Source of the DNA: Desulfitibacter sp. BRH_c19
GTDB taxonomy: Bacteria; Bacillota; DSM-16504; Desulfitibacterales; Desulfitibacteraceae
NCBI GenBank assembly: GCA_001515945.1
Contig: LOER01000028.1
Span: 1 to 24,000 of the forward strand
Length of the DNA stretch: 24,000 nt
Direction: 5' to 3'
Shown here: positions 9,897-11,648 of the stretch, one piece after another
How the letters are laid out: each line of letters opens with the position of its first letter
Numbering within the stretch: the first letter of the stretch is position 1
Program-made: the position numbers and the translations under genes
The notes under the pieces: generated by a model
Databases searched by the model: none
Seen by the model: the letters and a program-made list of their open reading frames with translations, nothing else
What the model was told of the DNA's origin: nothing

Positions 9897-10235
9897 GTGA
9901 CGACTAAAACTTCATGCTTTGAAATCGCCTCGGCAATTCCCAATGATAAACTAACCGAAATTGAAACTTTTGCAAATAATTTCAAGATACTTTCGGATCC
10001 AATTCGTTTAAAAATAATATATCTATTAAGAAATGGTGAATTATGTGTATGTGAAATAGCTTCATCTCTTAATATGAGCCAACCAAAAATATCCTATCAT
10101 TTGAAAATTCTTACTGAATGCAATCTCATTAGCCGTAGAACAGATTGGGTTTGGGCCTACTATAGTCTTACTGACAATATTCAAAATTGGCTAACTAATA
10201 ATAGTAATTTATTAAAGCTTCTGGAGGAGGAATAA
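9897..10235 (+). CDS. arsR: ArsR/SmtB-family metalloregulatory transcriptional repressor
   Basis: AAAGGAGG lies 8 nt before the GTG. The winged-helix core reads LSDPIRLKIIYLLRNGELCVCEIASSLNMSQPKISYHLKILTECNLI, including the ELCVCE alpha-3 metal-site motif. It sits immediately upstream of hgcA, and its last codons carry the hgcA SD. Confidence 0.85.
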   Translation: MTTKTSCFEIASAIPNDKLTEIETFANNFKILSDPIRLKIIYLLRNGELCVCEIASSLNMSQPKISYHLKILTECNLISRRTDWVWAYYSLTDNIQNWLTNNSNLLKLLEEE

Positions 10236-10239
10236 AAAG

Positions 10240-11355
10240 GTGGATATAAAATCATGTATTCCTGACTGTTGTGGATCTAACAGTTCTTGTTGTGATAAAA
10301 CTAAGTATTATGATATACCAAAAAACGGTGAAATTCCTACGGATGTAGGTTCTATCCCAATAGTAGCAACTACTCTATCCAAAACTGACATAGGAGACAC
10401 ACGGAAGGTACGTTTCAAGATTAATCGAATGGATTATAAAATTAGGCCTGGTCTTTATGCCGTAGGTAAGCCTGATTCAAGTAGTCCAGTTTTGGTTACA
10501 GCAAACTATAAGTTAACCTTTGATAGTCTGCGTAAAGAACTATCTAGTATTAATGCTTGGATATTAGTTTTAGACACCAATGGAATTAATGTTTGGTGTG
10601 CGGCAGGCAAAGGTACCTTTGGTACTGAAGAACTAGTCCGCCAGATAAACAATACTCATCTACATGGTATCATTTCACATAATAAATTAATTTTGCCCCA
10701 ACTTGGTGCTCCAGGAGTATCAGCCCACCTGGTTACCAAGGAAACAGGTTTTAAAATTATTTACGGCCCAGTAAGAGCTTCTGATATACCTGAATTTATT
10801 GCTGCAAATAATAAGGCAACACCCAACATGCGAAAGGTTAATTTCACATTTAAGGATCGCCTTGTATTAATTCCAGTTGAACTGATGAGCAGCTTAAAGC
10901 CAATGACGGCTGTAACAGCAGCTGTGATACTAGCAACAATTATAGCCTCCTATTTCTCTGCATCAGAAACACTATGGATACATGGTGTAGGATTTGTGTT
11001 TGCTTTTATAGGTGCGATACTTGCAGGTGCTGCAGTTACTCCTTTGCTTTTACCCTATATTCCCTTTCGCGCTTTTGCAATTAAAGGGTGGATAGTTGGC
11101 TTAGTATGGGTTTTCATATTCACAACCTTCTTCCCTGTATTTGGAAGCAAATTTTCTTTTAGAGAAGCCTTAGGCTTATACTTATTGCTACCACCAGTAA
11201 CTGCATTTCTTAGTTTGAATTTTACTGGTTGTTCTACCTATACGTCCCAATCAGGAGTAGAAAAAGAAATGCGAGTTGGACTTCCCATAATGATTATTTC
11301 ATCATTTGTAGGCATAGGTGCCCTAGCTAGTGAATATTTAACTTTGGTATTTTAA
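10240..11355 (+). CDS. hgcA: Mercury methylation corrinoid protein HgcA
   Basis: The cap-helix signature GINVWCAAGKGTFG (NVWCAAGK = aa 117-124, nt 10588-10611) is followed by a corrinoid-binding-like domain and about 5 C-terminal TM helices. The start is a GTG with GGAGGAGGA 8 nt upstream. The gene is followed by an HgcB-type ferredoxin. Confidence 0.9.
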   Translation: MDIKSCIPDCCGSNSSCCDKTKYYDIPKNGEIPTDVGSIPIVATTLSKTDIGDTRKVRFKINRMDYKIRPGLYAVGKPDSSSPVLVTANYKLTFDSLRKELSSINAWILVLDTNGINVWCAAGKGTFGTEELVRQINNTHLHGIISHNKLILPQLGAPGVSAHLVTKETGFKIIYGPVRASDIPEFIAANNKATPNMRKVNFTFKDRLVLIPVELMSSLKPMTAVTAAVILATIIASYFSASETLWIHGVGFVFAFIGAILAGAAVTPLLLPYIPFRAFAIKGWIVGLVWVFIFTTFFPVFGSKFSFREALGLYLLLPPVTAFLSLNFTGCSTYTSQSGVEKEMRVGLPIMIISSFVGIGALASEYLTLVF

Positions 11356-11375
11356 AGAGATAGGAGCTGAAATAA

Positions 11376-11648
11376 ATGAGCTTACAATATATAAAAAATG
11401 TATCCACCTTGAAGTTCGACCCTAAACTATGTAATGGTTGTGGTATGTGTTTGAATGTCTGTCCCCACAATGTTTTATCAATTGTAGATAAAAAGATTAA
11501 TATTAAACATAAGGATAGCTGTATGGAGTGTAGTGCATGTGTAAAGAATTGTCCCCAAGAAGCTCTTAGCGTAAACCCAGGTGTTGGATGTGCTTATGCA
11601 ATCCTGATAGGGATGATAAAGGGTACTGCGCCAAATTGCGATTGCTAG
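11376..11648 (+). CDS. hgcB: Mercury methylation ferredoxin HgcB (2x[4Fe-4S])
   Basis: AGGAG lies 9 nt before the ATG. Two cluster motifs are present: CNGCGMCLNVCP and CMECSACVKNCP. There is an extra Cys in GVGCA and a C-terminal Cys pair (NCDC). The gene is 90 aa and starts 20 nt after hgcA. Confidence 0.88.
   Translation: MSLQYIKNVSTLKFDPKLCNGCGMCLNVCPHNVLSIVDKKINIKHKDSCMECSACVKNCPQEALSVNPGVGCAYAILIGMIKGTAPNCDC

Follow-up and report, generated by a model that had tools for sequence, protein, structure and literature searches.

The 24,000-nt stretch of DNA analysed here (contig LOER01000028.1, positions 1 to 24,000; called the window, to which all positions refer) carries a genuine and intact arsR-hgcA-hgcB module, of a kind already known from many methylmercury-producing bacteria. 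An earlier note on this DNA, made from the sequence alone, had claimed a complete mercury-methylation module of these three genes. We checked open reading frames (ORFs) and translations against its coordinates and found three co-oriented, undamaged ORFs exactly where they had been placed. The identities of the genes are virtually certain. Taken as a whole, it is highly probable that this is one arsR-hgcAB unit, repressed by its own ArsR and encoding a mercury-methylating HgcAB pair. The general background of the note, namely the genetics of hgcAB, their patchy distribution and the presence of arsR upstream in a subset of methylators, agrees with the literature. The genes are as follows.

9897-10235, + strand: arsR, 112 aa, GTG start
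10240-11355, + strand: hgcA, 371 aa, GTG start
11376-11648, + strand: hgcB, 90 aa, ATG start

Relatives are labelled by locus. L082/L083, L084 and L085 are the three closest, and L002-L081 are loci from GTDB that contain hgcA and for which the upstream ORFs were surveyed.

Identity of HgcA and HgcB

In the search with curated hidden Markov models that the note had called for, HgcA and HgcB both scored above their equivalog cutoffs. HgcA reached 450 bits with NCBIfam NF040863 (HgcA_corrinoid; cutoff 275, E = 4.6e-135, 320 of 325 model positions), and HgcB reached 113.3 bits with NF040864 (HgcB_ferredoxin; cutoff 99, E = 3.5e-33). The note had considered that the HgcA candidate might instead group with paralogues resembling CFeSP (corrinoid iron-sulfur protein) or CdhD. 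It does not, because the NCBIfam CFeSP gamma model gave only 87 bits (cutoff 306) and the model for HgcAB-like fusions, NF043039, 204.7 bits (cutoff 285), against 450 bits for the HgcA model. HgcB likewise fell below the fusion cutoff, at 58.8 bits. Such fusions have homologous corrinoid, transmembrane (TM) and ferredoxin parts; here the genes are separate. The Pfam domain CdhD was placed on HgcA residues 68-186. A protein search returned 8000 HgcA homologs, and the named ones among the top 120 matches listed were mostly annotated HgcA. The hgcA start, GTG at 10240, is the first start codon past an in-frame stop at 10213. Three features of HgcA are discussed below.

10588-10611, + strand: cap-helix motif NVWCAAGK (in translation), with the Cys120 codon at 10597-10599
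10849-11349, + strand: TM domain, residues 204-370, with AlphaFold2 helices at 204-239, 244-269, 279-301, 307-325 and 337-370
10255-10293, + strand: Cys-rich N-terminal tail, with C6, C10, C11, C17 and C18 in MDIKSCIPDCCGSNSSCCDK

The diagnostic cap-helix motif is present as described earlier: AATGTTTGGTGTGCGGCAGGCAAA encodes NVWCAAGK at residues 117-124, fitting N(V/I)WCA(A/G)GK. The octapeptide occurs in 119 of the 120 sequences in an alignment of the window protein with 119 homologs. Cys120 is the predicted lower-axial cobalt ligand, corresponding to Cys93 in Pseudodesulfovibrio mercurii ND132. The AlphaFold2 model built from this alignment had a mean predicted local distance difference test (pLDDT) score of 88.7, with a mixed α/β N-terminal domain followed by five long helices. 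Hydropathy windows agreed, so that the "about 5" TM helices of the note became five, all C-terminal, as has been described for the HgcA family (PMC7305189, PMC11588087). HgcA is predicted to comprise a cytoplasmic corrinoid-binding domain and a five-helix TM domain.

A sequence search of the PDB found no solved structure of HgcA or HgcB; the only solved relatives of HgcA were CFeSP large subunits, with 4djd_C matching at E = 2.9e-11 over residues 66-190. Over that same range HgcA shares with the CFeSP/AcsC large subunit (4djd_C, 2h9a_A) a Rossmann-like corrinoid domain with a cap helix. CFeSP, by contrast, has a [4Fe-4S] domain at its N-terminus as well as a TIM barrel, lacks a TM domain, and carries Thr at the position of Cys120 (VLTAYADG of 4djd_C opposite NVWCAAGK).

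HgcB contains the two CX2CX2CX3CP motifs noted before, as C19/22/25/29-P30 and C49/52/55/59-P60, and their eight cluster cysteines are invariant in all 78 aligned sequences, which were taken from the hgcA loci. The extra cysteine in GVGCA, likewise confirmed, is C72, the equivalent of ND132 Cys73, and is kept in 73 of the 78. The C-terminal cysteine pair of the note was right in part. Two cysteines are there, C88 (kept in 70/78) and C90 (61/78), but they are spaced as CxC rather than being vicinal. HgcB ends at NCDC* (11619-11648), and the S-x(4-7)-CC extension of most relatives is absent. Since the same short tail is common to L082 and L084, it appears to be a trait of the lineage and not a truncation.

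The other terminal tail rich in cysteine belongs to HgcA, which begins with MDIKSCIPDCCGSNSSCCDK and has five of its seven cysteines within the first 39 residues. Residues 1-20 (10240-10299) are predicted to be disordered (AlphaFold2 pLDDT <55). Of the 120 HgcA sequences in the alignment, 106 have cysteine-bearing N-terminal tails, with consensus SCCCxxxxxC, and the CC...C(C) of the window tail is kept in the three closest relatives. Across the GTDB loci such tails are common in Bacillota, Spirochaetota and the Planctomycetota-Verrucomicrobiota-Chlamydiota group, rare in Desulfobacterota and absent in Bacteroidota. A term search of one modelling paper and one biochemistry paper on HgcAB turned up no mention of such tails, and a full-text literature search gave nothing relevant. 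We considered the idea that a Cys-rich HgcA tail compensates for a Cys-poor HgcB tail and rejected it; over 73 pairs (72 loci and the window) the Spearman correlation was negligible (rho -0.11, p = 0.37).

Probable operon structure and control region

The signals around the three genes are listed in order of position.

9776-9812, + strand: intrinsic terminator of an upstream 63-aa ORF, with stem at 9776-9805 and then a T-run; 5' boundary of arsR-hgcAB
9823-9851, + strand: candidate sigma-70 promoter, with -35 TTGATT (9823-9828), 17-nt spacer and -10 TAAAAT (9846-9851); 9/12 matches to consensus
9823-9896, no strand assigned: candidate ArsR operator region, with TTGATTTA at 9823-9830 (+), 9875-9882 (-) and 9889-9896 (+)
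9884-9888, + strand: arsR Shine-Dalgarno sequence GGAGG, 8 nt before GTG 9897
10223-10230, + strand: hgcA Shine-Dalgarno sequence GGAGGAGG, located within the final codons of arsR; 4 nt separate arsR from hgcA
11363-11366, + strand: hgcB Shine-Dalgarno sequence GGAG, 9 nt before ATG 11376
11672-11699, no strand assigned: stable hairpin between hgcB and a convergent PGA_cap remnant; -17.3 kcal/mol (z -2.2) on the + strand and -16.7 kcal/mol (z -2.7) on the - strand

The three genes very probably form a single operon, at 9823-11648. We infer co-transcription and translational coupling from the gaps of 4 and 20 nt, the Shine-Dalgarno sequence of hgcA inside arsR, the terminator upstream, and the retention of the trio in relatives despite differing flanks. 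The note had placed the hgcA Shine-Dalgarno sequence in the last codons of arsR, and GGAGGAGG is indeed found there, in the codons for LEEE. The arsR-hgcA gap of 4 nt in the window is 2 nt in L082, 2 nt in L084 and 1 nt in L085, and hgcB starts 20 nt past the hgcA stop, that is, immediately downstream. A terminator scan of 9300-12100 gave 3 sites where 2.1 were expected; two lie inside hgcA, at chance level, and apart from these no terminator was found between the three genes.

On the 5' side, the terminator at 9776-9812 is an inverted repeat with 13-nt arms that are 92% complementary; its RNA folding energy is -15.4 kcal/mol (z = -4.0), a value equalled by 0 of 200 shuffles. Although both arms carry changes in L082, the 9776-9805 stem persists there. 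The ORF that it follows (9549-9740, 63 aa) has a signal-peptide-like N-terminus, its own near-consensus promoter (TTGTCA-16-TATAGT, 9495-9522) and this strong terminator. It also lies immediately upstream of arsR in L082, is absent in L085, and matched no Pfam or NCBIfam family.

We tentatively place the arsR-hgcAB promoter at 9823-9851, judging from the sequence. L082 carries this block almost unchanged, and TTGACA of L085 aligns with the -35. L082 also keeps the arsR Shine-Dalgarno sequence and starts the gene at the corresponding position with ATG.

The promoter overlaps a cluster of short repeats. Exact copies of TTGATTTA number 4 in the 24-kb window (3.1 expected), and 3 of them fall within the 74 nt of 9823-9896. 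One overlaps the -35, and the other two are arranged as a perfect 8-6-8 inverted repeat, TAAATCAA/TTGATTTA, around the arsR Shine-Dalgarno sequence. Nearby, ATATCAA (9854-9860) is invariant in the three relatives that cover it, and TTGAT between the arsR Shine-Dalgarno sequence and start codon is invariant in all four. We infer that 9823-9896 may be the ArsR operator. An RNA switch at the 8-6-8 repeat was considered and rejected (fold z -0.71 in the window and a modest -2.0 in L082), leaving the repeat as a candidate DNA operator. No riboswitch or other known RNA was found at the module; the Rfam search used the gathering threshold over the window and a permissive E-value over 9300-12000, and gave sub-threshold chance matches only.

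On the 3' side, no classical terminator follows hgcB: the hairpin at 11672-11699 has no T-run on the + strand and was not called by the consensus scan. It could conceivably act as a bidirectional transcription stop, an assignment made with low confidence. The convergent gene beyond it, a CapA-like PGA_cap gene (11687-13115, - strand), is broken when compared with the 545-aa L082 orthologue, of which residues 378-467 are missing. What remains is a 410-aa ORF and a remnant in which the last ~75 aa lie in another frame (~11696-11920; ORF 11687-11896).

The ArsR regulator

ArsR matched Pfam HTH_5 (PF01022, 4.3e-20) and the NCBIfam ArsR/SmtB subfamily NF033788 (91.9 bits, cutoff 55, E = 1.6e-26). 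As the note had it, the regulator carries ELCVCE and ends 4 nt upstream of hgcA (stop at 10233-10235); the cysteines of that motif are C50 and C52, and there are two others, C7 and C75. The AlphaFold2 model (pLDDT 80.7) has α1 at 16-32, α2 at 35-44, α3 at 51-58, the recognition helix αR at 62-74, β1 at 78-82, β2 at 87-91 and α5 at 93-111, with a disordered N-arm. C7 lies in the N-arm, C50 and C52 at the entry of α3, and C75 just past the recognition helix, whose sequence, SQPKISYHLKIL, does not vary among the ArsR proteins of the window and its three relatives. At 112 aa the protein consists of the helix-turn-helix domain only, and we found in it no S-adenosylmethionine (SAM)-methyltransferase-like domain of the SahR type.

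Relatives in the PDB include SmtB, Listeria Lmo1102, CadC and a 6j0e chain described as "Arsenic responsive repressor ArsR". With the α3 and α3N sensors of this group (R773 ArsR, Staphylococcus aureus CadC 1u2w, Lmo1102 9t6r, 6j0e, SmtB 1r1t) the window protein shares ELCVC(D/E) at the start of α3. C50 and E53 fall opposite Cys61 and Asp64, α3N ligands of SmtB, and the CVC aligns with that of Lmo1102 (ELCVCD). C7 aligns with Cys15 of 6j0e, and the three closest relatives carry CC there, like Cys15/16. Unlike these sensors, which serve efflux or reductase operons, the window ArsR has hgcAB as its presumed target. Two of the three R773 thiolates (Cys32, Cys34 and Cys37 of ELCVCDLC) are present, as C50 and C52, while the third is A55. 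The α5 His ligands of SmtB are also absent, with His106 replaced by Ile95 and no His or Cys anywhere in the helix. C7 could supply the third thiolate, as in α3N sites.

By sequence, then, the most likely arrangement is a thiolate site of the α3N type that would bind a soft metal or metalloid and release the repressor. That hgcAB expression is metal- or metalloid-responsive, as the note had proposed, is plausible in view of the many thiolates among the sensory residues. For relief of ArsR repression by a thiophilic ligand we put the chances only somewhat above even. The sequence does not single out the effector, which may be As(III), Cd, Pb, Zn, Hg or a non-metal such as S-adenosylhomocysteine (SAH). 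The canonical neighbours of an ars-operon ArsR (adjacent arsB/acr3, arsC or arsM) were not found among the window ORFs of at least 90 aa that were scanned.

A word-index search returned only 9 relatives of ArsR, and the wider comparison therefore used ORFs from the hgcA loci. The ArsRs that precede hgcA showed at least three cysteine layouts. That of the window lineage has C or CC in the N-arm and CVC, with or without C75. A second, widespread in Bacillota and Spirochaetota, has CAC and C-E/D-C at 73/75, past the recognition helix. The third is the Desulfobacterota type, like ND132, with CVC and with CYC on β2 (the beta-wing). This diversity suggests either old divergence or repeated recruitment of the regulators.

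Relatives, distribution and host

HgcA is 82% identical to its nearest relatives in L082/L083, 65% to that in L084 and 57% to that in L085 (annotated "MAG: Bacillota bacterium"). ArsR identities on the same contigs, 83/69/61%, track those of HgcA. The order arsR (112 aa), hgcA, hgcB is kept in all three relatives, where 1-2 nt separate arsR from hgcA. The flanks differ from those of the window partly in L082, which has TrkH and a two-component system upstream, and entirely in L085, where hemerythrin is encoded upstream and GGACT and LysM genes follow downstream; no flanks can be seen in L084, which is too short. The trio behaves as one inherited unit, since it is kept, with parallel divergence, despite the differing flanks. 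No evidence points to recent transfer of the module: GC content is 36.4% in the module, 39% in its flanks and 37.0% in the window, and the window ORFs scanned with Pfam/NCBIfam included no domain of an integrase or transposase.

GTDB species representatives contained no HgcA above ~56% identity, and among the named HgcA proteins from the protein search none exceeded 57%. The neighbouring α-glucan phosphorylase found named matches in Bacillota only, at 68% or less (Thermincola, Halanaerobiales genera, Dethiobacter, heliobacteria). Because of these matches, the 37% GC and an SLH-domain protein in the window, we assign the host to an uncultured low-GC lineage of Bacillota.

An ArsR-like ORF lies directly upstream of hgcA on the same strand in 23 of the 80 other GTDB hgcA loci, mostly in Bacillota and also in Spirochaetota, Lentisphaerota and Desulfobacterota. 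In the literature, arsR-like genes near hgcAB have been noted across phyla; arsR was found within three ORFs upstream of hgcA in 14 of 31 confirmed methylator genomes, and in a lake metatranscriptome the presence of arsR went with lower hgcA/gyrB transcript ratios. A preprint lists phyla with ArsR-hgcAB, and Firmicutes are not on its list; in our locus survey, by contrast, the arrangement is frequent in Bacillota/Firmicutes.

The characterised counterpart is arsR2-hgcA-hgcB of ND132 (DND132_1054/1056/1057), where ArsR2 is co-transcribed with hgcAB, regulates them, and responds to As and SAH. In both loci a PF01022 gene immediately precedes hgcAB in the same orientation, with no further ars genes around it; HgcA carries the cap-helix Cys and five TM helices; and HgcB combines two CX2CX2CX3CP motifs with the Cys73-equivalent and C-terminal cysteines (Cys94/95 in ND132). 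The loci differ in host phylum, Bacillota here, and in the HgcB tail, CxC here and CC there. They differ most in the regulator. ND132 ArsR2 has a four-Cys site formed by a CxC past helix 2 and a CxC on a β-strand (C47/49/86/88), instead of C7 in the N-arm and C75, and ArsRs of the Desulfobacterota type found upstream of hgcA match the window ArsR only at E = 1e-5 to 1e-9.

Other Bacillota loci (Desulfosporosinus, Desulfitobacterium, Peptococcaceae, Sedimentibacter and many metagenome-assembled genomes) have the same gene order, and many have an ArsR-like ORF directly upstream that matches the window ArsR at E = 1e-14 to 1e-18. They have in common with the window the Cys-rich HgcA N-terminus and the CDC motif of HgcB. 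Their HgcA proteins are only 45-56% identical to ours, however; the N-arm of their ArsRs is short and free of Cys, and these proteins usually have four cysteines (CAC and C-E/D-C at 73/75); and their HgcB tails run on to a terminal CC, unlike that of the window.

Other genes in the window

The stretch 13303-19795 (- strand) encodes two sigma-54 activators, a BCCT transporter (13303-14868) and a methyltransferase of the MttB family (14981-16414). The methyltransferase gene has no internal stop and scored 452 bits with TIGR02369, below the cutoff of 525, and for these reasons the protein looks like a non-pyrrolysine member of the family; there was a borderline Rfam match to PYLIS_3 at 15352-15449. 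The region looks like a locus for demethylation of quaternary amines such as glycine betaine, which would place a second system of corrinoid-dependent methyl transfer a few kb from hgcAB. A BCCT gene is also found near hgcAB in L082.

Four genes at 21100-23342 (+ strand) encode a 2Fe-2S protein (Fer2_4), a pyridine-nucleotide-disulphide oxidoreductase, a 4Fe-4S protein and a small SO_alpha_A3/BFD-like protein, a set that resembles a complex of the sarcosine-oxidase or opine-oxidase type. Upstream of the module, 6948-8859 (+ strand) encodes an EB_dh protein (ethylbenzene-dehydrogenase-like, haem-binding; 482 aa) whose gene shares 11 nt with a hydrophobic ORF of 157 aa that has no family match. 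A c-di-GMP-I-GGC riboswitch (RF03167; 2213-2296, - strand; 67.1 bits, gathering threshold 59) lies just upstream of a 428-aa ORF (899-2185, - strand) in which no family scored above threshold.

Discussion

The arsR-hgcAB arrangement, its co-transcription and its response to As and SAH have all been published, and the window is a fairly divergent example. We propose that it would work as follows. HgcA would be a membrane-anchored corrinoid protein in which the cap-helix Cys120 ligates cobalt. Its cofactor would be methylated by SAM, the methyl donor of the ND132 enzyme, and the methyl group would then pass to Hg(II). HgcB, as a ferredoxin with two [4Fe-4S] clusters, would re-reduce the cobalt, and the thiols of C72 and of the terminal C88/C90 may handle Hg(II) and methylmercury, if the roles assigned to HgcB cysteines in the literature apply. 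An ArsR/SmtB homodimer would sit on inverted repeats of the TTGAT type over the promoter and 5' untranslated region, repressing its own operon, and would leave the DNA once a thiophilic ligand filled the site of Cys7 and the α3 cysteines Cys50/Cys52, possibly with Cys75.

In tested strains, hgcAB reliably predict mercury methylation. On that basis, the organism itself is likely to produce methylmercury.

Several observations count against the proposal of a repressed, mercury-methylating operon. The consensus promoter scan returned 7 sites against 11.1 expected from shuffles, and the -10 is ambiguous, a conserved TATAAT-like TGTAAT (9870-9875) being an alternative. In ArsR, the third R773 cysteine (Cys37) is A55; residues 86-91 on β2 (WAYYSL) have no Cys, and the second CxC of ND132 ArsR2, 39 residues past the first, is absent. 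No ars gene was found among the ORFs of at least 90 aa scanned over the 24 kb. Most relatives have a longer HgcB tail, and the terminal CC is absent here. The organism is known from metagenome contigs only; the exact HgcA is on record solely in JGI contigs, among them one of 119 kb from sample 3300030424. In published work, moreover, neither presence nor transcription of hgcAB predicted the rate of methylation.

The alternative that survives best, which we regard as possible but unlikely, accepts true hgcAB and places their selected function elsewhere, in halomethane dehalogenation or in a one-carbon reaction linked to As or to SAM/SAH. ArsR would then sense SAH, redox state or persulfide, and mercury methylation would be a side reaction. 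Response of ND132 ArsR2 to SAH as well as As fits this, as does the reported greater As(V) sensitivity of an hgcAB knockout; a 2026 preprint adds that heterologous HgcAB dechlorinates CCl4 besides methylating Hg. There are no ars or mer genes nearby. In ArsR/SmtB proteins of the BigR type, pairs of cysteines serve to sense sulfur or redox state, and the window ArsR had weak BigR and TsoR matches, but these were below cutoff (43.5 bits for BigR, cutoff 155), its 112 aa leave out a SahR-like methyltransferase domain, and an N-arm Cys with α3 CVC is the classical site for thiophilic metals. A different selected function is in any case compatible with the claim at issue, the capacity for mercury methylation.

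At the other extreme would be a dedicated soft-metal circuit, in which ArsR senses Hg(II) or another thiophilic ion directly and the CX3CCX5CC tail of HgcA delivers Hg(II) to the corrinoid in place of the short HgcB tail. Methylation would be both induced by and directed at its substrate, and if so it would be no accidental side reaction. We think this improbable.

It is quite improbable that ArsR is only an autoregulated neighbour without effect on hgcAB, which would be expressed constitutively from signals of their own or by read-through. Expression of hgcA was originally thought to be constitutive, and a weak promoter-like match lies inside arsR at 9919-9947. That match has 9/12 consensus positions, however, which is chance level; with the Shine-Dalgarno sequence of hgcA lying inside arsR, a separate promoter or terminator could not fit into the 4 nt between the genes; and the tight 1-4 nt junction has been kept, with parallel divergence, in four lineages. 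Finally, the reading of the 371-aa protein as a CFeSP/CdhD-like or HgcAB-like-fusion paralogue inactive on Hg, beside a generic dicluster ferredoxin, would agree with Pfam finding only CdhD and the PDB only CFeSP, but is effectively refuted by the model scores, the cap-helix Cys in place of Thr, the five-helix TM domain, and a separate HgcB above its own cutoff with C72 and tail cysteines.

The module, under the preferred reading of one ArsR-repressed arsR-hgcAB unit, marks an uncultured lineage of Bacillota as a likely producer of methylmercury, and it adds a distinct sensor architecture to the ArsR regulators wired to hgcAB. It should be of use in curating hgcAB reference databases and in choosing regulators for tests of hgcAB expression, and leaves the current picture of these genes unchanged. 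The most testable new lead is the disordered, Cys-rich tail of HgcA, which is widely conserved.

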